Shown: positions 7,538 to 45,206 of the stretch, one piece after another
Position numbering within the stretch: position 1 is the first letter of the stretch
How the letters are laid out: each line of letters begins with the position of its first letter
From: a virus
Taxonomy: Duplodnaviria > Caudoviricetes
Virus record (IMG/VR): IMGVR_UViG_3300036828_001070
Coordinates: 1 to 53,331 of that record
DNA length: 53,331 nucleotides
Direction: 5' to 3' (one strand)
Notes under the pieces: model-generated
Told to the model about the DNA's origin: nothing
Database searches by the model: none
What the model saw: only the letters and a program-made list of their open reading frames with translations
Position numbers and translations under genes: made by a program

Positions 7538-7903
7538 CTAGCGTGTCACCATCAGGGTCGCACTGACTGCGTTGCCCAGCGAACCCACCGAAGCCCGCAC
7601 AAACCTGGGGAAGATAGTCATCATGTCGTAGCGCGACTCTCCCGTATCGCTGAGCTGTGCCACCGAAACGTAGTTGGCATCCTCATCCGCATCGGCTACT
7701 TCGATATCAAAGGTGAAAGCTCCGGGAGGACCGGAAAACTTCACTGCAAACGAAGCCCCCCAGGGATAGAAGTTCCCCCGCGTGCGCCGCAACTGAAAAG
7801 CTACGCTGCGTTCGCCTGCGTTTACCGTCTCGTTCTGAAACAGAAATGCCTGCCGATTCTCATACAGCAAAGTCGCTAGATTGTTTCCTGGATATCCCGG
7901 CAT
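7538..7903 (-). CDS. virion structural protein (small beta protein)
   Basis: 121-aa ORF with strong RBS in the structural operon. Confidence 0.6.
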   Translation of the reverse strand: MPGYPGNNLATLLYENRQAFLFQNETVNAGERSVAFQLRRTRGNFYPWGASFAVKFSGPPGAFTFDIEVADADEDANYVSVAQLSDTGESRYDMMTIFPRFVRASVGSLGNAVSATLMVTR

Positions 7904-25915: not shown

Positions 25916-26076
25916 CCCAGCACCAGCCGTCCCACCAACAGCGTCCACAGCACCCACATGAGCGCCACCACGTACACCACCAACTTCACCGCATAGCGCA
26001 CCCGCTCGTTCAGACTCAAATCAAGCAGCGGCACCACAATGTATGCCACCAGCAGAATCACGACGATCTGAACCAT
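25912..26076 (-). CDS. two-TM small membrane protein (54 aa), holin candidate
   Basis: Hand translation MVQIVVILLVAYIVVPLLDLSLNERVRYAVKLVVYVVALMWVLWTLLVGRLVLG; GGGGGAG RBS. Confidence 0.6.
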   Translation of the reverse strand: MVQIVVILLVAYIVVPLLDLSLNERVRYAVKLVVYVVALMWVLWTLLVGRLVLG

Positions 26077-26086
26077 GACTCCCCCT

Positions 26087-26410
26087 TCAGCCTTCTTCCT
26101 TCAACTTAATGACGCTGACTTTGTCTACCCCATCCACAGATGGATCGAACCTGCGATTGCGTTCCAGCCAACCCAAGAACTTACTACCGCCCTCGCGCGC
26201 CTTCTCGTACAACTCCTTCTGGTTTTCTTCGTAGGCGATCAATACCGAGAAATCAAACGGGAATAAGGGCGGTGTAAGGATGCCTCCTTCAGGGATCGAT
26301 TCGAGTGTGATAGGGTCCGCCTGTTGCATACGCTCAAAATTTTCCTTCTCGATCACTACCAGAAGAACCGACTTCTTCTCTTCGCTGATATTCACCATCG
26401 CTGCTAACAT
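26087..26410 (-). CDS. hypothetical protein
   Basis: GGGAG RBS before MLAAMVN; first gene of the minus-strand run. Confidence 0.6.
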   Translation of the reverse strand: MLAAMVNISEEKKSVLLVVIEKENFERMQQADPITLESIPEGGILTPPLFPFDFSVLIAYEENQKELYEKAREGGSKFLGWLERNRRFDPSVDGVDKVSVIKLKEEG

Positions 26411-26489
26411 TTGGCGTTCTCCCTGTCGCTTGCAGCCCACATCGCCTGTCGCCTACACTCTACCACTTGCGCTTATCCCTTGCGCCTAA

Positions 26490-27150
26490 AATCTCCCCAC
26501 TTTCTACTGTCGCCCCCAGCCTACCTTATCCTCCAATACTTACTACTCTTACTAACTTAATTACCTTTGTTTCCCTATTCCCAACTTTATTTTTACCTCT
26601 ACCCCAATTGTGAAACTTTTTACCCACCTCGTCCCGTCCTTACCTCTTTCAGCCTTTTCCTCGCGCTCGCCTTACCTCGCTTTCCAGCAAAACCCTTTCC
26701 CCCTATTTTTTTCTTCTCTATTCCACTTTTCGTTTTCATTCGAAAAAGGTAGGATGCGTCAGTGACATCGCGCCCCCGCCTGGAGCGGACAAATAAAGCG
26801 CGAAATTCAGGCCATCCGGGCCATCATAGAACCTCCACAGCGCATCTGTGACGGCACGTAGATGCCGGCAGAGTCCCTATCTTTAGATAGAGTGTCGTAG
26901 GATGCTGCAGCCCGGCAGAATCCCGTCCTACAACTAGTCAATTAGCGTTTGCGGCCGAATCCCTGACAATACCGCCGGCAGCCTGCAGCCTGATCGTGTT
27001 TAGTCAGATGCGCCTTGATAAGCGCCTAAGAACATCTGGAATTGGTTCTTAGAGCATCCCCTGCGCGCATTATGCCGGCAGGAAACCTGCGCGCGAAACA
27101 GGGTAAGTGGAAGACACAGAGGTGACAAAGAAAATATTTACGATAAGAGT
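26490..27150. other. long non-coding divergence region: pyrimidine-rich tract followed by a hairpin-rich segment
   Basis: 26490-26745 is strongly C/T-skewed; 26840-27105 has several inverted repeats and CCGGCAG repeats; no credible ORF. Confidence 0.6.
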
Positions 27151-27152
27151 AA

Positions 27153-27218
27153 AATAGGCTATTGACGACACATTAGAAGCATGTAATTCTATAGATCCGT
27201 TGTAGGCGATTAGCTACA
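27153..27218 (+). promoter_or_regulatory. early promoter (TTGACG at 27162) with two operators (27153-27170 degenerate; 27201-27218 TGTAG-gcgattag-CTACA)
   Basis: AT-rich UP-like region, near-consensus -35, operator palindromes; -10 ambiguous. Confidence 0.6.
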
Positions 27219-27225
27219 GCGGTAA

Positions 27226-27279
27226 GACCGAAACCCGCGTTTTGTGGGTCGTAGTGTAAAGCACTACCTGACGAAGGTC
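27226..27279 (+). ncRNA. type II hammerhead ribozyme
   Basis: GACC-GAAA-CCCGC(GTTTT)GTGGG-TC^-GTAGTG(TAAAG)CACTAC-CTGACGA-A-GGTC: full catalytic core and three stems; predicted cut after 27250. Confidence 0.88.
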
Positions 27280-27284
27280 AGATA

Positions 27285-27307
27285 AAGCGCATACCACGCT
27301 TAGGAGA
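27285..27307 (+). promoter_or_regulatory. UACCA-loop hairpin plus SD, copy 1
   Basis: AAGCG-CATACCA-CGCTT-AGGAGA. Confidence 0.7.
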
Positions 27308-27315
27308 GAAACGAA

Positions 27316-28194
27316 ATGAATTTACACCACTTTACCCATGGTGCACGTGCTAACCGGCAGCTGGAACCGATGACCATTGCGGAGCTGCAGTTAGCGGTTC
27401 CATCGGCATTTGCGACTACGGCGCATTCTTCGCGGTCTGAGCGTTACGCCTATATTCCTACGGCCAATGTGATTCAGGCGATGATGAAGGAAGGTTTCCA
27501 GCCTTTTAAGGCGACGCAGTCCGGATCCCGGATTGAAGGCAAGGCGGAATTTACCAAGCACTTGATACGCTTTCGCCATATTTCTGCCGGCAGTGATATT
27601 TGTGTAGGGGATAGCGTGCCTGAAGTTGTTTTGATTAACTCCCATGATGGCACCTCAGCTTACAAGCTGATTGCTGGGATGTATCGTTTGATTTGTTCGA
27701 ATGGGTTAATGGTGGCGGAGTCTACCACCGGATCTCTGAGCGTGCATCATACTGGCGACATTGTTAACCGGGTTATTGAAGGTTCGTTTGAAATTGTTGG
27801 CCAGGCATCGAAGGCGCTAGAGACTTCGAAGGTCTGGTCACATCTGGAATTGTCTGCAGGGGAGCGAGAAGTATTTGCTGAAGCTGCGCACACAGTACGG
27901 TTTGCTGAATCGGATGGCAAGGTAGACACGCCCATCACCGCAGCAATGCTTTTGACTCCGCGGCGCCGTGATGATGCTGGCAACAACCTTTGGCAAACGT
28001 TTAACCGGGTGCAGGAGAACGCGGTTAAAGGTGGATTGGCTGCGCGTGCCGAACGTAAACCTGGCCAGCGTATGGGACGTTTGGTTAGGACTCGCGAAGT
28101 TAAGGGTATCGACCAGGATGTAAAGCTTAACCGCGCGCTATGGCAGTTGGCAGAGCGGATGGCGGAGCTGAAGGGAGTTAAAACCGCAGCCTAG
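27316..28194 (+). CDS. DUF932 (DUF945/YubP-like) protein
   Basis: SRSERYAYIPT, FTKHLIRFR, PEVVLINSHDGTSAY, RLICSNGL, LWQTFNRVQEN motifs. Confidence 0.9.
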   Translation: MNLHHFTHGARANRQLEPMTIAELQLAVPSAFATTAHSSRSERYAYIPTANVIQAMMKEGFQPFKATQSGSRIEGKAEFTKHLIRFRHISAGSDICVGDSVPEVVLINSHDGTSAYKLIAGMYRLICSNGLMVAESTTGSLSVHHTGDIVNRVIEGSFEIVGQASKALETSKVWSHLELSAGEREVFAEAAHTVRFAESDGKVDTPITAAMLLTPRRRDDAGNNLWQTFNRVQENAVKGGLAARAERKPGQRMGRLVRTREVKGIDQDVKLNRALWQLAERMAELKGVKTAA

Positions 28195-28256
28195 CAGATG
28201 GCGAGGTGGGAGAGATCCCACCTTGTAATGCGCCGGCGGTCAGTCCAAAGTCTGAC
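28194..28256 (+). ncRNA. twister-like ribozyme (P5-type permutation, variant)
   Basis: GCA-GA-TGG-[P1 CGAGGTGGGA/TCCCACCTTG]-T^AA-TGC-GC..-[P4 GTCAG-TCCAAAGT-CTGAC]; T1 pseudoknot TGG/CCA in register; T2 non-canonical. Confidence 0.6.
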
Positions 28257-28268
28257 GCATTAAACCAA

Positions 28269-28289
28269 GTGCCTTACCAGCACAGGAGA
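28269..28289 (+). promoter_or_regulatory. UACCA-loop hairpin plus SD, copy 2
   Basis: GTGC-CTTACCA-GCAC-AGGAGA. Confidence 0.7.
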
Positions 28290-28296
28290 AAACCGA

Positions 28297-29052
28297 ATGA
28301 AGCATCTTATTTCGCTATCTGCAGCCATTAAGGCGAAGGCGCCGATCGTGGCGCTACCCATAGAAGGACACGCACCTGTATGCGTAGCGCGCGCGCGCCT
28401 GGCTAAGTGGTCTAAAGGCGTGACCATTACCAGCGTCAAGGTTACCGGTGGCGAAGCCTATATCACGATCGAATTCGAACGGCCGAAAGGCTATCAGGTA
28501 GAAGGTCCGATTAACCGCGTCGAAGTCCATCACCTCACTCCTCGGCGCCTGGAGATCGAAGGCACTGCCGGCAGAGTTAAAACCCGCTGCTCTTTTATTC
28601 CCATTGATAGACGTACGGCGGTTAAGACGCTGGCCGCTTGGAGCGAAAAGGAACGCGCGCGCCTCACTAAAAAGACGCTGTTAGGTGCGTTGGGAACCAA
28701 GGAAAGACGCGCGCTAAAGCTGGCCAAGCATGAGACTGAAGGCGAAGGTATGATCTCCGCCACGATCGCCTATCCCAACGGCAAACGTGCCGACGTCATG
28801 GGGCTGCCGGTAACTATTCCCCAGCTGGCGGAGCTGACGTTTGTAGTGCATCGCGCGCTATCCGCCGAAGGCGATTACGTAGACGACCAATGGACAGTAT
28901 CGGAGATCGTTAGCGGCCAGGCTGGCGGCTTCGGTGCGACTGCAGAGGATGCGATCGTAGACGCGCGCCAGCGCTGCGCTAAAACTTCGGCCGAAAAACT
29001 GCAGTCCATACGCGATCTAGTGGCTTCGATGTCGGAAGCGATCGCAGCTTAA
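28297..29052 (+). CDS. hypothetical early protein
   Basis: AGGAGA RBS, 251 aa. Confidence 0.75.
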   Translation: MKHLISLSAAIKAKAPIVALPIEGHAPVCVARARLAKWSKGVTITSVKVTGGEAYITIEFERPKGYQVEGPINRVEVHHLTPRRLEIEGTAGRVKTRCSFIPIDRRTAVKTLAAWSEKERARLTKKTLLGALGTKERRALKLAKHETEGEGMISATIAYPNGKRADVMGLPVTIPQLAELTFVVHRALSAEGDYVDDQWTVSEIVSGQAGGFGATAEDAIVDARQRCAKTSAEKLQSIRDLVASMSEAIAA

Positions 29053-29059
29053 CCGCGCC

Positions 29060-29084
29060 TTGATAGCGCACCCAAAATTTACCC
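29060..29084 (+). repeat. gene-boundary repeat TTGATAG-N-CCCAAAATTTACCC (related copies at 27015, 30047, 30505, 30885, 31485)
   Basis: Direct comparison of intergenic sequences. Confidence 0.7.
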
Positions 29085-29101
29085 GAAGAGAGAAGACAAA
29101 G

Positions 29102-29461
29102 ATGAACAGTAAAGACATGGTTACCGACTTCAAGCTGCAGGAGAACGGAGAAAACTGCACTATTAAGGCGCTGCTCAAGGCGATTAACGCGTTCTGCGGA
29201 TCCCTGGCCGAAGAGTATGACTTTGGGCTGCCATTCGATACGCCTAAAGATGCGCGCCTGCCGGAGAAGTATTGGCGCCTGATTGCATTCGCCGTCGAAG
29301 GCTCCAATGAAGGCTATTACGTGCACCTGGGTGCACTGGTACGCGACCGCCACACTACCAACTATGTCTCATTCAGTCTGGCTAAAACCTATAGCGCGGA
29401 GAGTGCTTACGAACTCGCCAAACAAACATCACGCTTCCTGGCTGCAGCCTGCTGGAACTAA
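29102..29461 (+). CDS. hypothetical early protein
   Basis: Start MNSKD; EGSNEGYYVH motif. Confidence 0.7.
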   Translation: MNSKDMVTDFKLQENGENCTIKALLKAINAFCGSLAEEYDFGLPFDTPKDARLPEKYWRLIAFAVEGSNEGYYVHLGALVRDRHTTNYVSFSLAKTYSAESAYELAKQTSRFLAAACWN

Positions 29462-29503
29462 TCGCCGGCCCGGAGCGTTTCCGGTCAGAAAGGCTTTACC
29501 CCT

Positions 29504-29719
29504 ATGCAATGCGCCATGCGCGACGAATGCAGGCAGCCAGTAACCCACATCGGAGAGAAAGGATACGTCTACTGTGCCGAAGACGCTGAGCGTCGTCGGC
29601 AATCAGGCTATGAGAGAACGCGCAGAATGCGTGTCTGGGAATTGCAACTGATTGCCAACGGACAGCCTCTGCCCTCTTACACTCCCCAGAGAAAACCACA
29701 AGGAGAGAACAATGGCTAA
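29504..29719 (+). CDS. small Zn-binding hypothetical protein
   Basis: CAMRDEC..PVTHIGEKGYVYC. Confidence 0.65.
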   Translation: MQCAMRDECRQPVTHIGEKGYVYCAEDAERRRQSGYERTRRMRVWELQLIANGQPLPSYTPQRKPQGENNG

Positions 29720-30050
29720 GCTTACGCGCGGGTCCGATCTCATGGGAGATCGCTATCGCTACGACTTCAAACTATGCACGCCGGCCAATGGATGGGCGCA
29801 ATTGGATACCAAGCAGGATGCGCCGTACTTCGGCAACTGGATTAATCCGATCGAATTCAAGCTGATGAGTTACTGCGAGGGCGATACCTGTCTGACCGAG
29901 TGTGAGGATATCGCCGACTTCGCTGCTGAGTTACAGGTGTGCATCGACTGGCACAAAGAGCGCGAGTACTTCATTGGCATCGACTGTGCCGGCAACGAAG
30001 AAATCAAAGCGGCATTAGTGCAAATGGGATTTGCAGAAGTTCTGCATTGA
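29712..30050 (+). CDS. hypothetical early protein
   Basis: AGGAG RBS; DRYRYDF..C...GWAQLDT.QDAPYFG.W.NP...YCEGD. Confidence 0.75.
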   Translation: MAKLTRGSDLMGDRYRYDFKLCTPANGWAQLDTKQDAPYFGNWINPIEFKLMSYCEGDTCLTECEDIADFAAELQVCIDWHKEREYFIGIDCAGNEEIKAALVQMGFAEVLH

Positions 30051-30173
30051 TAGGCAGTCCAAAATTTACCCAGTACGCGACGGCTTTGGAATTGTTCGCG
30101 ATGGATTTACCCCCCCCACCACCTTCTAACCGCGCGCGCCGGCGCAAGATCCGGCGCAGAAAGAACTTACTCC

Positions 30174-30488
30174 ATGCGTTTCATGAAATTCACTTCCGCC
30201 GTTGTACTCTGCGCCGGCTCCATTGCCCTGCACGCGCAAACCACGACCACTTGCACTCCCACCTGGGGAGGCGGCCAAACCTGCACCACGCAAGAAAGCC
30301 CATTACAGAAGCTGCAAGAGCAGCAGCGCGAACAACAGGAGCAGTGGCACCGTCAACAGCAAGAGCAGCAGCAAGCCTTCCAGAACCAGAGGCAGCAGGA
30401 ACAGGCGAACCGCCCGCAGTGCACCACTTACTCGCGCGACCCGTTTAGCGGCCAGGTCAAGGCCCGCACCGCTCCCTGCGCCTTCTAA
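30174..30488 (+). CDS. secreted/periplasmic Gln-rich protein
   Basis: Signal peptide ending ALHA-Q, Cys pairs, Gln-rich coil. Confidence 0.65.
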   Translation: MRFMKFTSAVVLCAGSIALHAQTTTTCTPTWGGGQTCTTQESPLQKLQEQQREQQEQWHRQQQEQQQAFQNQRQQEQANRPQCTTYSRDPFSGQVKARTAPCAF

Positions 30489-30544
30489 ATCTGTGGGCGC
30501 GCTATTGATAGGCGCCCAAAACTTTTACCAAACCGAACCCCGAA

Positions 30545-30565
30545 ACGCTCTACCAGCGTAGGAGA
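30545..30565 (+). promoter_or_regulatory. UACCA-loop hairpin plus SD, copy 3
   Basis: ACGC-TCTACCA-GCGT-AGGAGA. Confidence 0.7.
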
Positions 30566-30573
30566 ACAAAGCC

Positions 30574-30888
30574 ATGGCTCAGCCTATCCGCACCAGGATT
30601 AATATCCCCGAACTCGACAAAGCCGACGGCCGCGCCGTTCTGATCTTCGAAACCTTCAAACCCCTGTCTGGCGGAATTACCTCGTATGCCCGCGTGGAAT
30701 TCGTTGGTGACAACTTCTCGACCTTCGCACCCTTTGGCGACTTCTCCACCCGTCTGGAACACAACCGCAACGCCCGCGCCACCCAAGCTGCCATGCAGGC
30801 CCAGCATGACCGCATCTTTGCCCCCGCCGTGGCCGATGCCCTGCGCGGCCGCGCCCTGTTCCACTACCAAGGCCCGCAGACGCTCTGA
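30574..30888 (+). CDS. hypothetical early protein
   Basis: AGGAGA RBS, 104 aa. Confidence 0.7.
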   Translation: MAQPIRTRINIPELDKADGRAVLIFETFKPLSGGITSYARVEFVGDNFSTFAPFGDFSTRLEHNRNARATQAAMQAQHDRIFAPAVADALRGRALFHYQGPQTL

Positions 30889-31002
30889 TCGACACCCAAA
30901 ATTTTCTGCAAGCACCACCGTGAAAACGTTTTACAACCGCAATATAAGTCCAACCGTTGGACTTTTACCCAAATCGCACCAACTATAAAAGGAGATCCAC
31001 CC

Positions 31003-31200
31003 ATGGCCATACTGAGCATTAAAGACTTCCCAGAAGAGTTGCTGGTCTTTCTCAAAGTAAAAGCGGCACAAGAGCGCGCCACCCTGAAAGACATTGTGAT
31101 TGGCATGGTCAGCGCCATGGATGGAGCACCCAACGAAGCCAAAGCCAAAATTCCGAAGCCCAGGGGCAGACGACCGCGCAACTTCCCCGTCAAACCTTAA
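31003..31200 (+). CDS. ribbon-helix-helix (Arc/FitA-like) DNA-binding protein
   Basis: MAILSIKDFPEEL...LKVKAAQERATLKD; upstream palindrome AAGTCCAA-CCG-TTGGACTT. Confidence 0.7.
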   Translation: MAILSIKDFPEELLVFLKVKAAQERATLKDIVIGMVSAMDGAPNEAKAKIPKPRGRRPRNFPVKP

Positions 31201-31281
31201 CCCCGGTTTCCCACCGCAACCCTGAAAGGTCGTGCTATCTTCTTTTTCTTATTCTTCCTGCTCTTCCCCTTTATCGCCGTG

Positions 31282-31428
31282 ATGTACTTCGTACCCGCAG
31301 CCGTCGCTATGCTTCGCAGACACAACAATGTGGCTCCTATCGCCATCGTTAACCTGTGCTTCGGGTGGACGTTCCTGGGATGGGTCGTCGCTCTGGTCTG
31401 GTCGCTCACCGATAACACTCGCATTTAA
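31282..31428 (+). CDS. superinfection immunity protein (T4 Imm family)
   Basis: MYFVPAAVAMLRRHNNVAPIAIVNLCFGWTFLGWVVALVWSL; missed by the ORF track; true start may be further upstream. Confidence 0.85.
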   Translation: MYFVPAAVAMLRRHNNVAPIAIVNLCFGWTFLGWVVALVWSLTDNTRI

Positions 31429-31693
31429 CTCCGCTGCCCGGTCTCCGAAAATCGGGCAGCACCAACCCCAGCACACCTTGCACCTTGATAGCAGCATAAA
31501 ACTTTGTGATACTGGCGAAAGGTATTACAAAGGTATCGTTATTAGTATAGGTAATATATATAGATAAAGTGTACCTGCAACCTTTTAGGTATCACCCCAT
31601 ACTTTTCCAAGTGGACGGTACTAACAAACCACTAATACTATGGACACAGCCCACCCTGGACTTTTGCCGGCCACTTTTGCCGGACCACAACAT

Positions 31694-31811
31694 GCGCGGC
31701 GCTCGTATAGCTCGGGTATAAGCGACCGCGAAAGGCATTCCCCGCGCCCGTTCTCCGGGCAAGGGAATCCTGGGGACTGGTAATCCCCCGCCGGGGTAGG
31801 CAAGCCCCGGC
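31694..31811 (+). ncRNA. putative structured RNA (four tandem hairpins) upstream of the XRE gene
   Basis: Hairpins at about 31695-31730, 31737-31768 (loop TTCTC), 31772-31788 (loop CTGGTAA) and 31790-31811; candidate promoters TTGATA-17-GATACT (31485) and TGGACG-18-TACTAT (31612). Confidence 0.55.
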
Positions 31812-31830
31812 TGTAGTGAAAGGAATATGC

Positions 31831-32082
31831 ATGGCGCGCCTGGTGGTCAAAAAAGGAACGAAGGCAAAATCTCGCGATATCATCTCTCTGTTCGGATGTC
31901 ATATCCGTGAATTGCGCCTGACCAGGCAGATGTCGCAGGGAGAAATGGCAGAAAAATTCGGCATGGATCGCAGCTTTATCTCCGACCTCGAACGCGGCCG
32001 CAAGTCTCCTCGCCTGCCCATGATTAAAGTAATCGCAGAAGGTTTTGGTATCAGCGTCGGCGAACTGATGAAGGATCTATGA
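31831..32082 (+). CDS. XRE-family HTH regulator (repressor candidate)
   Basis: FGCHIRELR..RQMSQGEMAEKFGMDRSFISDLERGRKSP. Confidence 0.88.
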   Translation: MARLVVKKGTKAKSRDIISLFGCHIRELRLTRQMSQGEMAEKFGMDRSFISDLERGRKSPRLPMIKVIAEGFGISVGELMKDL

Positions 32083-32294
32083 TGATCGCCAGCATCCGCA
32101 TTGCCGCCAGCCGCTGCACCTGCGAACTCTGTGGCTGGGAGTGGATATCCATCGCCCAGGCCGTTCCCCCCATCGCCTGCCCCCACTGCAAGTGCCGCGT
32201 TTGGAATGGACCCAAGCGCAATGGCCGCCCCCCCGTTCCCCGCGACACCTCCCACATCGGCCTACCCAAACCCCACCGCGTACGCTTGACCTAA
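32079..32294 (+). CDS. small Zn-ribbon protein
   Basis: CELCGWEW...PIACPHCK..VWN; ATGA-coupled to the XRE gene. Confidence 0.7.
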   Translation: MMIASIRIAASRCTCELCGWEWISIAQAVPPIACPHCKCRVWNGPKRNGRPPVPRDTSHIGLPKPHRVRLT

Positions 32295-32313
32295 AAACGT
32301 ATATACATATCTG

Positions 32314-32508
32314 ATGAAGACATCCAGTGAACGCATCCGGCAACGGCTTCGAAAAGATCGCCCCATGACAACGATTAGCATCCGCATCCCCGAAGATGTA
32401 ATCGAGAATCTGAAAGAGATCGCGCCTACTCTAGGATTCTCCGGATATCAACCACTCATCCGCGCCTATATCGGTCAGGGACTGCGAAAAGATCAATCCC
32501 CATTGTAA
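32314..32508 (+). CDS. orphan CopG/RHH antitoxin-like protein
   Basis: RPMTTISIRIPEDVIENLK.IAP.LGFSGYQPLIRAYIGQGLR. Confidence 0.7.
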   Translation: MKTSSERIRQRLRKDRPMTTISIRIPEDVIENLKEIAPTLGFSGYQPLIRAYIGQGLRKDQSPL

Positions 32509-32532
32509 CTACAAACGTAGTATAATCCAATT

Positions 32533-32817
32533 ATGCAGTATGAGTGGGATCCCAACAAGGCAGCTACAAATCTGCACAAACATGGCATCGACTTCGAAGA
32601 TGCTGTTCGTGTATTTTCCGACCCGCAACGTGTCGAGATTCTCGATAATCGCAGAGATTATGGGGAAGATCGCTGGATGACTATCGGTCTTGTTGAACCT
32701 ACCGTACTCGCTGTCATCTATACGCTTCGCGGCAAAGACGGCGAGATCACTCGACTTATTTCTGCAAGAAAGGCAGATGCTAATGAGAAAGCAAAATATC
32801 GTGAAGTACGAGTTTGA
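32533..32817 (+). CDS. brnT: BrnT-family toxin
   Basis: EWDPNKAATNLHKHGIDFEDA...YGEDRW..IG...RLISARKA. Confidence 0.92.
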   Translation: MQYEWDPNKAATNLHKHGIDFEDAVRVFSDPQRVEILDNRRDYGEDRWMTIGLVEPTVLAVIYTLRGKDGEITRLISARKADANEKAKYREVRV

Positions 32818-33100
32818 TCCAAAAAATCCGCCACCGCTGACTGCACAACAGCGCAAACGGCTTAACCGTCTCGCTACTATGCCCGACAGCGAAATCGACT
32901 ACAGCGACATTCCACCTCTTACAGGCAAGGAGGTCTGGACCCGCCCCGGCCTTCTGGTTTCGACGGAAAACAAACAGATGGTAACCCTGCGTCTCGATGC
33001 CGATGTCCTACAGTTCTTCAAGAAGACCGGCAAACGTTACCAAAGCCGCATCAATGCAGCTCTGCGCGAGTACATCCAGATCCACAAAAAATCTGCCTAA
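32801..33100 (+). CDS. brnA: BrnA-family antitoxin
   Basis: GTG start at 32801; IDYSDIPPL...KQMVTLRLDADVLQFFK..G.RYQSRINAALR. Confidence 0.9.
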   Translation: MKYEFDPKNPPPLTAQQRKRLNRLATMPDSEIDYSDIPPLTGKEVWTRPGLLVSTENKQMVTLRLDADVLQFFKKTGKRYQSRINAALREYIQIHKKSA

Positions 33101-33117
33101 CCCCTAAACCGCACTAA

Positions 33118-33140
33118 GTCGGCATACCACCGACAGGAGA
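33118..33140 (+). promoter_or_regulatory. UACCA-loop hairpin plus SD, copy 4
   Basis: GTCGG-CATACCA-CCGAC-AGGAGA. Confidence 0.7.
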
Positions 33141-33148
33141 ATCGTTCG

Positions 33149-33823
33149 ATGCAGAATGCAGTCGCTTACTTAAGAGTCTCCGGACAATCCCAGCTGGAAG
33201 GCACCGGCTTTGATCGCCAACTGGAAGCCTGCACCAGCTTCGCCGCCGGCAAAGACTTCGCCCTGGTCAAAATCTTCGAAGAGAAGGCCATCGCCGGCTG
33301 GAAGGATGAGGATGAGCGTCCCGCCTTCCAAGAGATGATCGCCTACATGCTGGACAACAACACCAGCATCATCCTGGTAGAAGGTCTGGACCGCCTGGCT
33401 CGCGCCATGCGCGTGCAGGAACAGCTGCTGCTCTACCTCGCCGCCAAGGATCTCACCCTCTACGCCGCTAACACTGGCGAGAACATCACCGAAGCGGTTA
33501 CCTCGGATCCCATGAAAAAGGCTTTGGTCCAGATTCAGGGAGTATTCGCGGAACTGGACAAAAGCATGATCGTGGCCAAACTGCGCAAGGGACGCGAACG
33601 CACCAAAGCCCGACACGGCCGCTGCGAAGGCCAGAAGCCCTATGGCCACTACCCCGGCGAAGCCCCGGTACTGGCGCGTATCCGCCACCTGCGCGCCCAG
33701 GGAATGCAATACCACCACATCGCCGAACGCCTTTCTGTCGAAGGCCACCGTTCGCGCTCCGGCGGTCCCTGGCGCGGTCCCGTCATCGCCAAGATCATAC
33801 GCCGGGAAGCGATAGCACCCTGA
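33149..33823 (+). CDS. small serine recombinase (resolvase family)
   Basis: YLRVSG..Q, ERPAFQEMI, VEGLDRLAR, C-terminal HTH-like region. Confidence 0.9.
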   Translation: MQNAVAYLRVSGQSQLEGTGFDRQLEACTSFAAGKDFALVKIFEEKAIAGWKDEDERPAFQEMIAYMLDNNTSIILVEGLDRLARAMRVQEQLLLYLAAKDLTLYAANTGENITEAVTSDPMKKALVQIQGVFAELDKSMIVAKLRKGRERTKARHGRCEGQKPYGHYPGEAPVLARIRHLRAQGMQYHHIAERLSVEGHRSRSGGPWRGPVIAKIIRREAIAP

Positions 33824-33946
33824 TTGCGCCTCGCTTGCGCAAAATCGATTCTCGCTTTCGCATTCCCAATGTACTTCCGGTTTTTCTCTTTAATCCAACG
33901 CAAACACCGTAAAATAATCGATTAGCGTGCCGTGGGGGATTTGAGC

Positions 33947-34147
33947 ATGAAAGACTGGAAAAAGGGTTTATCCGCCAGTGACCTCAAAAAATATGCCCGC
34001 GTGCAGAAGATGGCGCACCAGGCGGTCTGCATCGAACTGCGCGACTACGAAGGCTGGATGCAGCTGGACGCTAAAACAGCATGGAAGATTCTGGCACTCC
34101 TGCCGCGCGAACGCCTGGCGGATCCACCGTCCGTGCTGAAATCCTGA
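33947..34147 (+). CDS. hypothetical protein
   Basis: GGGGGA RBS; overlaps the convergent rusA 3' end. Confidence 0.45.
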   Translation: MKDWKKGLSASDLKKYARVQKMAHQAVCIELRDYEGWMQLDAKTAWKILALLPRERLADPPSVLKS

Positions 34148-34541
34148 CCTGTTCCATGGGACCGTATACCTTCGACTTCTGCACCGTCACCACCTGCGCA
34201 TCATCGACAAACAGCACCCCGGTCAGCGCGTCCAAAGTGGCACGCTCCAGCTTATCGATGTCCGGCGGCACCACCGGCCACAATCGACGTTTGGGCACAC
34301 TCGCCGGCTTCACGAATATGAACTCCAAATCCAGCTCCACCGGCACATGCTTGCCCGCCAGCGGTCGGGGCAGATCCAGCTCACTCAGAGTCACAATCGC
34401 CTCCCGCGTCGTCTCCGCCCGATAGGAGCGCAGCGTCTTCGGATTGTCGTCCACCAGAACGGCACGCCCGTTCTTGACGAAACCCTTCTTACTACCCTGC
34501 GGCTCCGGCCTGGCGTAGACCGTGAAGGTAACCTGACTCAA
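34071..34541 (-). CDS. rusA: RusA-family Holliday junction resolvase
   Basis: PEPQGSK, PDIDKLERATLDALTG..FVDDAQVV. Confidence 0.9.
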   Translation of the reverse strand: MSQVTFTVYARPEPQGSKKGFVKNGRAVLVDDNPKTLRSYRAETTREAIVTLSELDLPRPLAGKHVPVELDLEFIFVKPASVPKRRLWPVVPPDIDKLERATLDALTGVLFVDDAQVVTVQKSKVYGPMEQVRISARTVDPPGVRAAGVPESSMLF

Positions 34542-43664: not shown

Positions 43665-43891
43665 GCAACAATCTTTTTCTGAAACGGCCGCTGAGAACGT
43701 ATTGGCTTATTCAAATCCACCGTATGCACGGTACGGGATGCAACCAAGTCATCGATGGTGCTTTGTTTAATCATGGGCGTCTTGCCCATCCTCACGTATT
43801 CAATCTCTTTCCGCCCCATCCAACTGCGGAGTCGCCGGATCGAGATATTCAGTTGCTGGGCAGCTTTCTCTACAGTAAGAAGAGTTACCAT
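43661..43891 (-). CDS. xis: excisionase-like HTH (recombination directionality factor)
   Basis: LLTVEKAAQQLNISIRRLRSWM..KEIEYVRMG; divergent from integrase. Confidence 0.8.
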   Translation of the reverse strand: MVTLLTVEKAAQQLNISIRRLRSWMGRKEIEYVRMGKTPMIKQSTIDDLVASRTVHTVDLNKPIRSQRPFQKKIVA

Positions 43892-43907
43892 TTTGATTCC
43901 TCCCAGT

Positions 43908-43955
43908 TGTAGCCAGCAGCCTACTGCCCCTTCTCTTTGTTGTCAAGAGCCTACA
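43908..43955 (-). promoter_or_regulatory. xis promoter TTGACA-17-TAGGCT covered by two operators (43908-43925, 43938-43955)
   Basis: TGTAG-ccagcagc-CTACT over the -10 and TGTTG-tcaagagc-CTACA over the -35. Confidence 0.7.
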
Positions 43956-44006
43956 ATTCCTGCATTCTATATACAGCTTTCGCCATTTGCTCGAAGAGGA
44001 ATTCTT

Positions 44007-45206
44007 ATGTCTGTCTATCTGAAAAAAGGCTCGCTTGTTTACACCATGGACTTTGAATTTCAAGGTCAGCGCATCAAGGAATCAACCGGCGTTCGTACCA
44101 AAGAGATGGCCCGGAAGGTGGAACGTCTCCGTAAATCTGCACTGGAAGAGGGTAGAGCCGGGGTCGTCAAACCCAAATCACCCCAACTCTTCGCCGCAGT
44201 TGCGGAGGAGTATCTGAATCTGGAAAAAGCCCAGCTCACTCCGGACCAGCAAAAGGGTCATGCGAGTACAGTTCGAATCGACATCTTCAACCTCAAACAT
44301 CTTCTCCCCGTCTTCGGCAAAAAACTGCTCTGCGATATCACCCCGATGGATATAGCGAAGTACCAACAGGACCGGATTCGGAAAGGTGCCGCTCCCAAAA
44401 CCATCAATTTGGAGCTTGGCACCTTCCGCTCTATCACGACTGAGGGTGGTCACTGGGCACGGCTCATTCCCAAAATCAAGATGCTGGATGTGGATGATGA
44501 TATCGGCATCAACCTGACCGATAAAGAAATTGCCGCCCTCCTGGAGTCATGCACTCTCTCAGAATCGCGCATCCTGTATCCGTTCATCGTCATGCTGCTG
44601 GAGACCGGTTCGCGGTCAGGCACGGTAAAGAGTCTCACCTGGGATCGCATCGACTTCCAGGGTGGAGGTCTGCGTTTTGGTGACGACAAGACCAAAGCCG
44701 GATCCGGACGCACGGTACCGATCAGCAAACGGGCGATGGTTGCCCTGGAGTTTTGGGCTGAGAATTTCCCCAAACGGAAGCCTCACCATTTTGTCTTTGC
44801 TCGTGAGATCTATCGCCAGCAGAAAAATGGGGGGGAGGGGGTCCCCCCCATTGGCAGCTACACCACCTATCCCGAAGTCCCGATTACGAGTCTGCAGCGA
44901 TCCTGGGAGACGGCATTGGAACGTACTGGCAGGATTCTGACTGGAAACGCAGATGCGGAACCATTGCAATGCCGTTTCCATGATCTCCGGCACACTGCGG
45001 TCTCGCGCATGATCGCCGCTAAAGTGCCTATTCCCATCATTGCGCAGCTTGTAGGCTGGAGCGCTTCCACGATGATTACGATGGCGGCCCGTTATGGTCA
45101 CTACAGCATGGACACCCTGCGCGGAGCGGTAGAAACCATCTCCGGTTCAGGGTCCCCCCCAAATCCCCACCCATTGGCTCCGTCTAGTGGTGCAAGTTTC
45201 TTGTAA
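44007..45206 (+). CDS. int: tyrosine integrase
   Basis: ETGSR, KT, FHDLRHT, GW, RYGH catalytic motifs; start MSVYLKK after GAGGA. Confidence 0.95.
   Translation: MSVYLKKGSLVYTMDFEFQGQRIKESTGVRTKEMARKVERLRKSALEEGRAGVVKPKSPQLFAAVAEEYLNLEKAQLTPDQQKGHASTVRIDIFNLKHLLPVFGKKLLCDITPMDIAKYQQDRIRKGAAPKTINLELGTFRSITTEGGHWARLIPKIKMLDVDDDIGINLTDKEIAALLESCTLSESRILYPFIVMLLETGSRSGTVKSLTWDRIDFQGGGLRFGDDKTKAGSGRTVPISKRAMVALEFWAENFPKRKPHHFVFAREIYRQQKNGGEGVPPIGSYTTYPEVPITSLQRSWETALERTGRILTGNADAEPLQCRFHDLRHTAVSRMIAAKVPIPIIAQLVGWSASTMITMAARYGHYSMDTLRGAVETISGSGSPPNPHPLAPSSGASFL

Follow-up and report, generated by a model that had tools for sequence, protein, structure and literature searches.

The 53,331-nt sequence analyzed here (the window), the tailed-phage record IMGVR_UViG_3300036828_001070 of IMG/VR, carries four short hairpins that each run without a gap into the Shine-Dalgarno (SD) sequence AGGAGA of a different gene. 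This arrangement raises the question of whether the hairpins represent a selected RNA structure and, if so, what such a structure does at translation starts. A first-pass annotation had proposed a new cis-acting RNA motif with paired stems and an invariant UACCA loop. Comparison with other viral and metagenomic sequences made it almost certain that the motif is a genuine RNA hairpin, under selection and linked to translation starts, and showed it to be wider than first noted. As to its function, we tentatively favor (with a probability of about 0.45) a cis-acting mRNA module, namely a structured ribosome-binding site whose ACC loop would be read by a partner.

All four strings were located on the plus strand at the positions initially reported, with AGGAGA at zero spacing. 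Hairpin 1 (27285–27301) consists of the stem AAGCG/CGCUU and the loop CAUACCA, and the hairpin is also the minimum free energy structure of this site (−4.4 kcal/mol). It is followed by the SD and start segment 27302–27318 (AGGAGA at 27302–27307, 8-nt spacer, ATG at 27316) of a gene of the DUF932 family (27316–28194, +; Pfam expectation value [E] 7.6e-44). Hairpin 2 (28269–28283; stem GUGC/GCAC, loop CUUACCA) adjoins the segment 28284–28299 (AGGAGA at 28284–28289, 7-nt spacer, ATG at 28297) and precedes a gene for a 251-amino acid (aa) protein (28297–29052, +). Hairpin 3 (30545–30559; stem ACGC/GCGU, loop UCUACCA) adjoins the segment 30560–30576 (AGGAGA at 30560–30565, 8-nt spacer, ATG at 30574) and stands before a gene for a 104-aa protein (30574–30888, +); like the 251-aa protein, the latter belongs to no Pfam family. 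Finally, hairpin 4 (33118–33134; stem GUCGG/CCGAC, loop CAUACCA), with the segment 33135–33151 (AGGAGA at 33135–33140, 8-nt spacer, ATG at 33149), precedes a gene for a 224-aa serine recombinase (33149–33823, +; Resolvase, E 4.8e-27). The Pfam scan thus bears out the set of linked genes named by the first-pass annotation, and the ATG 7–8 nt after AGGAGA at all four sites ties the motif to translation starts as that annotation had held.

The stems of the four hairpins comprise 4–5 bp, and all four loci combine the NNUACCA loop with a zero gap to AGGAGA. A script scan of both strands of the window for stems of at least 3 pairs around NNTACCA yielded 10 hairpins, of which just these four abut an SD sequence. 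The strings TACCA-N4-AGGAG and TACCA-N5-AGGAG each occur twice in the window, compared with 0.02 and 0.07 expected occurrences, respectively, and in neither case did any of 100 shuffled sequences reach two. The predicted fold is a hairpin at each of the four sites, with the SD sequence and the start codon unpaired; for hairpin 3, ViennaRNA favors the alternative fold ACGCU-CUACC-AGCGU.

The motif was then sought outside the window, where L-numbers denote DNA stretches or loci and G-numbers virus records carrying the motif. Relatives of the DUF932 protein (46–67% identity) were present at 24 loci in viral contigs. The 7-nt loop form precedes the SD at none of these, and 3 of the 24 (L004, L015, and L019) possess a hairpin with a 5-nt loop abutting the SD. 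These contribute six further stems: two in L004 (GTCGT-AACCA-ACGAC and GTCGC-TACCA-GCGAC), one in L015 (GCCGT-TACCA-ACGGC), and three in L019, while the remaining 21 loci have other hairpins or none ahead of DUF932. Because MAFFT misplaced the 2-nt loop insertion of the window sites (alignments A1 and A2), a covariance model (R1) was built without them from the six sites of these three phages (alignment A3). Applied to the whole window with filters off, R1 gave 24 matches, with site 4 at rank one (E 0.0016), followed by site 2 (E 0.02); sites 3 (rank five, E 0.62) and 1 (rank eleven, E 3.7) lay within the noise of this model.

An open pattern with fixed flanks and loop (AAG-N4-TACCA-N4-CAGGAGA) had 115 matches in 114 viral-contig stretches, which is about the number expected by chance. 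All four free pairs are Watson-Crick pairs in 10 of the 115, where about 0.45 would be expected, and each of these 10 is followed by a start codon; the L004 and L015 contigs account for two of them. With the same flanks and a 7-nt loop, 118 matches were obtained in viral contigs and none had a fully Watson-Crick stem, on which basis the 7-nt loop of the window is to be read as a lineage variant.

In other viral and metagenome contigs the motif stands before two to nine consecutive genes: nine in G006, six in G010, four in G007, three in L060, and two in G008. These records were reached via one site each, and the further sites found in them (7 in G006, 5 in G010, 3 in G007, 2 in L060, and 1 in G008), whose loops were not chosen by any search pattern, all carry ACC. 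Their loops are TACC, CACC, ACCGA, ACCC, ACCAA, ATACCA, AACCA, CACCA, AAACCAA, CTACCGA, CCACCA, and ACCA. The conserved core outside the window is therefore the triplet ACC, usually within a U-ACC-A pentaloop; the invariant 7-nt UACCA loop originally described holds for the four window sites and not beyond them. Likewise, among 63 Watson-Crick hairpins with 5-bp stems and loops of 3–7 nt that abut AGGAG in 2.8 Mb of sequence, the loop TACCA occurs 13 times (a count biased by the searches) and AACCA, which was not searched for, three times, with every other loop found at most twice.

The commonest exact form of the motif is the 21-mer GCCGCTACCAGCGGCAGGAGA, with 37 copies in 31 metagenome stretches, three of which (L400, L418, and L422) coincide in their site positions with G010, L060, and L142. 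A start codon and an open reading frame (ORF) of at least 30 codons follow 33 of the 37 copies; the remaining four (L396, L403, L413, and L417) were not examined. L394 and L401 each contain three identical copies within 1.2–1.4 kb. In nine whole records and six loci, the gap between stem and SD is zero at 33 of 39 sites and a start codon follows at all 39. A compilation of 69 unique sites, which is shaped by the search patterns and includes a few doubtful rows, has A directly before the stem (position −1) in 60 cases and ATG as start codon in 57; ACC is preceded by U in 51 sites and by A in 13, and it is followed by A in 62. The usual layout of the motif is accordingly an A, a stem of 4–6 bp enclosing the U-ACC-A loop, and AGGAGA, followed by an A-rich spacer of 5–8 nt up to the start codon. 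The sites cluster in one operon per carrier record. The 52 distinct proteins encoded behind them are mixed and comprise DUF932 (four), AAA-type proteins including clamp-loader-like ones (four), and one each of resolvase, DUF3150, SymE-like, and zinc finger proteins, most of the 52 having no Pfam family.

Evidence that the stem itself is under selection comes from covariation. Among 31 sites aligned with the model, 98% of the stem cells pair, all five stem pairs vary on both sides, and 43 cells are compensatory. The covariation score was reached by none of 500 shuffles, and sliding the 3′ partner of the stem reduced pairing to 20–63%. The selection on an RNA hairpin postulated by the first-pass annotation is upheld by these differing stems with compensatory changes, both in the window and in other phages.

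The intergenic regions in which the hairpins lie hold further elements. A candidate type II hammerhead ribozyme, which scored below the gathering threshold (27226–27287, +; RF02276, 22.7 bits versus 37, with E 0.0086 when 141 nt were searched), is located directly upstream of hairpin 1, and its 3′ tail overlaps the first bases of this hairpin. The alignment contains all of the elements CGAAAC, GUC, and CUGAnGA; additional nucleotides separate CUGACGA from stem II. A Twister-P5 ribozyme (28193–28255, +; RF02684, 44.5 bits) is predicted between DUF932 and hairpin 2 and ends 13 nt before the latter; its score exceeds the gathering threshold of 37.6. DUF932 thus sits between two ribozymes that are likely to be self-cleaving and that the first-pass annotation had missed. 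If both cleave, the DUF932 cistron would be cut out as a unit with 5′-hydroxyl and cyclic-phosphate ends. In L015, a Twister-P5 ribozyme (56.9 bits, 7848–7900) occupies the same place after DUF932, and L142 has a type II hammerhead (39.6 bits, 1180–1237) right after a DUF932-like gene. Rfam searches detected no ribozymes in seven further 20-kb pieces of carrier records, so that ribozymes were detected in just three carrier records, each time beside DUF932-type genes. The ribozymes are therefore associated with DUF932 and not with the ACC hairpin.

Other sites follow promoter-like sequences. By eye, TTGACA-17-TAnnnT strings were recognized ahead of the hairpin in L004, L015, and G007, and in L004 and L015 the hairpin begins 7–9 nt after the −10-like hexamer; a promoter scan of the window found nothing at 27162–27190. 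At window site 3, a longer GC-rich hairpin (GGGCGC...GCGCCC; 30495–30518, +, identified by eye) lies about 26 nt upstream of hairpin 3, and this order resembles the intergenic regions of G006, each of which contains a long GC-rich hairpin that an A-rich linker separates from the subsequent ACC hairpin. In the nine-gene operon of G006 (L340, 16600–20000, and L341, 1–800), the long hairpins have no U-tract and the linker shows a recurring GCTC...GGAAAGC; the operon has a highly modular gene-cassette layout. Across sites, the distance from the upstream stop codon to the motif ranges from −25 to 281 nt, with some stop codons directly abutting the stem. Within the plus-strand island of the window that holds the four sites, the motif is missing from genes whose upstream neighbor overlaps them or lies very close, as well as from those with promoter-like sites of their own (e.g., the genes at 32314 and 32533).

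The tentative interpretation as a structured ribosome-binding site is suggested by the zero spacing to a strong SD, the unpaired A on both sides of the stem, the A-rich spacer of optimal length, and the use at independent starts. Such a module would be placed where an early or accessory gene starts translation alone, be it after a promoter, a ribozyme, a long hairpin, or a stop codon. By locking the nucleotides 5′ of the SD, the hairpin would bar upstream sequences from pairing with it and thereby insulate the start, as in the synthetic element RiboJ. Since the end of the stem is the beginning of the SD, the stem could also stack end to end on the helix formed by SD and anti-SD, and the invariant ACC would offer a sequence-specific contact for the partner.

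Several observations weigh against this interpretation. Taken singly, the hairpins of the window have a low stability (−4.4 to −6.9 kcal/mol; z-scores, 0.0 to −1.4), which does not exceed that of shuffled sequences. The 31-site alignment was fitted to the structure of the model, and its members had been selected with a model in which pairing is rewarded. Many unrelated contigs share the stem GCCGC/GCGGC (30 of the 69 sites), so the stem is not fully free and the covariation cells are partly non-independent. Neither pure insulation nor pure stacking explains why ACC is invariant. Pairing with the tail of the 16S rRNA was considered and rejected, as the 3′ end of an Acidobacteriaceae 16S rRNA (...GGAUCACCUCCUUUCU) is ordinary and has no GGU after the anti-SD; this check covered one genome of that family. 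Lastly, the nine carrier records are 14–100% complete and their ORFs were crudely called, so that a phage reader that is small and evolves fast could have escaped detection. As the energies of single hairpins are unremarkable, the case for a structure rests on covariation across sites and phages, and here the open-pattern pairing test (10 of 115) is free of the caveats of alignment fitting and model selection.

A reader of the loop was sought among the carriers. In an all-against-all comparison of 723 crude ORFs (BLASTP, E<1e-5; phmmer, E≤0.01), no protein family was found in more than four of the nine carrier records, and the most widely shared one (four records) is DUF932, by which those records had been found. 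Because the carriers share no protein, the partner is less likely to be a phage protein than a conserved component of the host, such as the ribosome platform or some other host RNA or protein; this assignment is the weakest point of the proposed mechanism. Candidate RNA partners were likewise examined and set aside. A pseudoknot in cis was rejected, with GGT, TGGT, and GGTA not enriched from −80 to +90 around the SD of the 69 sites. Scanning of 30 loci for a phage tRNA partner yielded just tRNA-Ser(ACU), tRNA-Thr(CGU), and tRNA-Ser(UGA), in two records. An antisense sponge was also contemplated. The divergent region upstream of DUF932 (26450–26750, +) is pyrimidine-rich and G-poor and contains 8 TACC per 300 nt, compared with a window mean of 1.1; on the minus strand, this tract corresponds to (A/G)GGUA(A/G) repeats within the leftward operon's leader. 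G003 has 10 TACC per 300 nt in the form of GGTTACC repeats (L019, 6100–6450). As such a tract recurs in just this one of the eight other carrier records, it is not tied to the motif.

A signal used by hosts throughout their genomes could be ruled out. Bacterial and archaeal genomes totaling 596 Gb gave 68 matches to the pattern AAGC-N3-TACCA-N3-GCAGGAGA, roughly as many as expected by chance; full Watson-Crick pairing is seen in four of the 68 (about 1 expected), one of which is the L015 prophage in Candidatus Angelobacter. Five bacterial genomes scanned as a whole contained 31 strings combining loop and SD, compared with eight for a reversed control. Among the 31 are the prophage site and a site on a 6-kb contig, each with five pairs and a start codon, as well as one site with a 4-bp stem and one G-U-rich pairing without an ORF; no others form hairpins. 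Both the chance-level matches and this near-absence of hairpins argue against a host-wide role.

In a more far-reaching version, which we regard as speculative and rather improbable, the ACC hairpin would be a new and widespread class of phage translation signal. Its ACC triplet would serve for docking on conserved host machinery, by base pairing or other contact with a universal site, GGU-bearing or ACC-binding, in the ribosome or a different host RNA. The anticodon loop UGGUA of tRNA-Thr(GGU) is the exact complement of UACCA, and a GGU in RNase P RNA reads the ACC ends of tRNAs; both serve as leads only. If docking were true, unrelated phages would gain a privileged, context-proof initiation of their early genes, and the motif would be to bacterial viruses what structured ribosome-recruiting elements are to eukaryotic ones.

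The same features can be accounted for in other ways. One of these, which seems doubtful, is a translational operator regulon, the reading put forward in the first-pass annotation. On the model of the T4 gp43 and RegA operators and phage Mu Com, a phage repressor, activator, or antisense RNA would bind the ACC loop, occlude or open the SD, and so control the marked genes jointly. An invariant loop on a variable stem is the usual signature of a protein-read hairpin, and the presence of the 7-nt loop at four of four window sites and in none of the 118 matches elsewhere would fit the co-evolution of loop and reader within a lineage. The gene 43 operator of T4, too, is an upstream hairpin with a -UAAC- loop beside the SD (excerpts of PMC3014915). 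However, the same ACC hairpin recurs in phages without a detectable common protein (at most four of nine records share one, DUF932), the 52 downstream proteins are heterogeneous, a conserved GGU or UGGU partner is lacking within −80 to +90 nt, and TACC/GGTA-rich tracts occur in just two of nine records. Also unlikely, to a similar degree, is an element of RNA processing or stability, i.e., a 5′-terminal stabilizer or an endonuclease site that defines monocistronic units excised from polycistronic early transcripts and whose proximity to the SD is incidental. The position of the L004 and L015 hairpins relative to the −10-like hexamer would place them right at the mRNA's 5′ terminus, predicted self-cleaving ribozymes precede window sites 1 and 2, a cut in the linker of the G006 layout would leave each cistron with protective hairpins at its 3′ and 5′ ends, and the A at −1 is highly conserved (60 of 69 sites). 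Stabilization would, however, not need the zero spacing to AGGAGA seen at most sites, the distances to the upstream stop codon vary widely (−25 to 281 nt), and many sites have no promoter-like site or ribozyme nearby; moreover, we know of no nuclease that reads an ACC loop.

The spread of the identical 21-mer before unrelated genes (37 copies in 31 stretches, up to three per 1.2–1.4 kb) is reminiscent of the repeated regulatory cassettes of T4-type phages. It could point to an element acting at the DNA level, either a cassette boundary, made up of the short inverted repeat and the SD, that favors the shuffling of genes by recombination or a hairpin signal in single-stranded DNA, such as a primase or hairpin-promoter site. 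This is nonetheless very improbable, since the stems covary, which recognition of double-stranded DNA does not need, and since the motif is always oriented the same way, lying on the coding strand with a constant distance to the start; in addition, a PHROGs scan of the ten large window proteins revealed neither a giant virion RNA polymerase nor any other enzyme that uses hairpin promoters. Least credible of all is the resemblance to an anticodon arm (UAC) pointed out in the first-pass annotation, according to which the hairpin would mimic tRNA-Val(UAC) and bind a synthetase or tRNA-modifying enzyme, as in the thrS operator. The window loops do have 7 nt and contain UAC, but tRNAs have U at position 33, a purine at position 37, and a 7-nt loop on a 5-bp stem, whereas placing UAC at positions 34–36 puts A, U, C, and A at position 33 of the four loops (U33 in one of four) and C at position 37 in all four. 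The common form of the motif, furthermore, has a 5-nt or 3-nt loop in which ACC alone is kept.

The wider context of the four hairpins is that of a temperate tailed phage, as judged from a gene content that includes a terminase, a major head protein, a primase/helicase, a Sak4-like protein, and a tyrosine integrase; the completeness of the window record is estimated at 65%. The four hairpin-marked genes form part of a plus-strand island (27316 to approximately 33823) between blocks of leftward genes. A search for relatives of the 251-aa protein in viral contigs found none, and megablast of positions 26500–34000 gave no match to cultured phages. The L015 phage sits integrated in a Candidatus Angelobacter (Acidobacteriota) assembly (L172/L373), which is the sole host clue for this phage group, and the tyrosine integrase of the window (43755–45206) has a relative in the L015 phage. 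The island also contains other features. A likely BrnT/BrnA toxin-antitoxin pair (32533–33100) consists of a 94-aa ORF (32533–32817) and the subsequent BrnA antitoxin (32690–33100; Pfam E 1.5e-18). A TTGTAA-N-TATAAT string, whose end lies 6 nt upstream of the ATG at 32533, points to a leaderless transcript, and the gene at 32314 is laid out similarly. An AT-rich segment (31485–31600) holds the promoter-like sequence TTGATA-17-GATACT with an upstream TG, followed by four AAGGTAT-like/TAGGTAA-like repeats that may be operators or iterons. At approximately 30945–31000, a terminator-like hairpin (GTCCAA-CCG-TTGGAC plus TTTT) is followed by ACCCAAA and an AGGAGA before a 65-aa gene (31003), which has the SD hexamer of the four sites without an abutting ACC hairpin.

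The motif matches no described RNA family. Rfam 15 matched nothing on the hairpins: positions 26000–34500 of the window (E≤5) returned the Twister-P5 ribozyme and a chance RT-15 match, and three loci with nine canonical sites (E≤10) gave two unrelated weak matches. The check agrees with the first-pass annotation, which had recognized no described family. Elsewhere in a carrier record (G009), an int-alpA RNA (RF02996, 49.6 bits) was detected at L361, 11583–11649. The motif was not found in cultured phages by megablast, canonical-site, or model searches; a 46-nt canonical site produced chance-level matches alone (E about 10), and two Tunturiibacter phages gave weak model matches alone (14.2 bits), inside a structural gene. 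Searches of open-access main texts did not turn up any account of a hairpin with an ACC or UACCA loop next to an SD. The motif is thus undescribed in the resources searched and belongs with the hairpin operators and start-associated signals at the SD. Conserved hairpins adjacent to an SD are known as single operators (T4 gene 43, thrS), and no earlier description was found of a portable, covarying hairpin-SD cassette that stands before many unrelated genes in unrelated uncultured phages. If a host factor reads the ACC loop, the motif would mark a point of phage takeover of translation initiation; if phage factors read it, it would define early-gene regulons in soil phages whose genes are almost wholly unannotated. 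For the annotation of such contigs, it provides a simple marker of true start codons.

Among known small RNA hairpins, the boxB elements of lambdoid phages have a variable 5-bp stem and a conserved pentaloop and are read in early transcripts by arginine-rich N proteins, which are small and evolve so fast that sequence searches would not link them between phages. The boxB loops are GNRA-like (GAAAA, GACAA), paired with boxA, present once or twice per operon, and not fused to the SD; here, by contrast, up to nine hairpins per operon each stand at a start, the loop is U-ACC-A or a variant of it, and no motif site has a GNRA-like loop. The guanidine-II (mini-ykkC) riboswitches share with the motif the very small size, the free stems, a conserved loop starting with AC, and the closeness to the SD. 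They consist of two tandem hairpins whose ACGR loops pair mutually, whereas the motif sites are single hairpins without an Rfam match, and ACC loops cannot pair with each other.

The nearest described system is that of the start-associated sequences (SAS) of Cluster K mycobacteriophages, which contain AGGAG, lie 3–7 bp before starts, and number 11–19 per genome (excerpts of PMC3203893). According to the same excerpts, SAS are found in the non-structural half of the genome, mostly at genes more than 50 bp from their upstream neighbor, precede genes of different families, are absent from host genomes, and have no known function or reader. The likeness to our motif lies in the restriction to phages, the position before non-structural genes with larger gaps, and the absence from hosts. 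SAS, however, is a fixed 13-bp sequence (GGGATAGGAGCCC), and the inverted repeats of the extended form (ESAS) keep their sequence and show no compensatory pairing, for which reason its authors favored DNA-binding proteins (PMC3203893, in part). Here the stem is free and covaries while the ACC loop and the SD are fixed, AGGAG alone is shared with the 13-mer, the flanks are the stem end and A-rich sequence, and neither hosts nor phages are related to Cluster K. The gene 43 operator of T4 and RB69, a short hairpin next to the SD with a conserved -UAAC- loop that is read by gp43 (excerpts of PMC3014915), is similar in that an upstream hairpin adjoins the SD of a phage gene and the loop is the conserved part. 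As far as these excerpts describe it, it is a single autoregulatory site bound by its own product, the DNA polymerase, whereas the ACC hairpins comprise many sites at unrelated genes, with another loop, zero SD spacing, and no link to a T4-type polymerase. RiboJ, finally, combines a ribozyme with a 23-nt hairpin placed upstream of a ribosome-binding site, an arrangement suggested to expose this site and to stabilize the mRNA (excerpts of PMC6206723). Window sites 1 and 2 have the same order of ribozyme (the candidate type II hammerhead and Twister-P5, respectively), linker, hairpin, and ribosome-binding site. On that partial account RiboJ differs in being man-made and in having a hairpin without a conserved loop, and most natural sites of the motif have no ribozyme. 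Should the ACC hairpin raise or insulate translation, it would be a natural counterpart of RiboJ and of processing hairpins and could be used as a part in synthetic biology.

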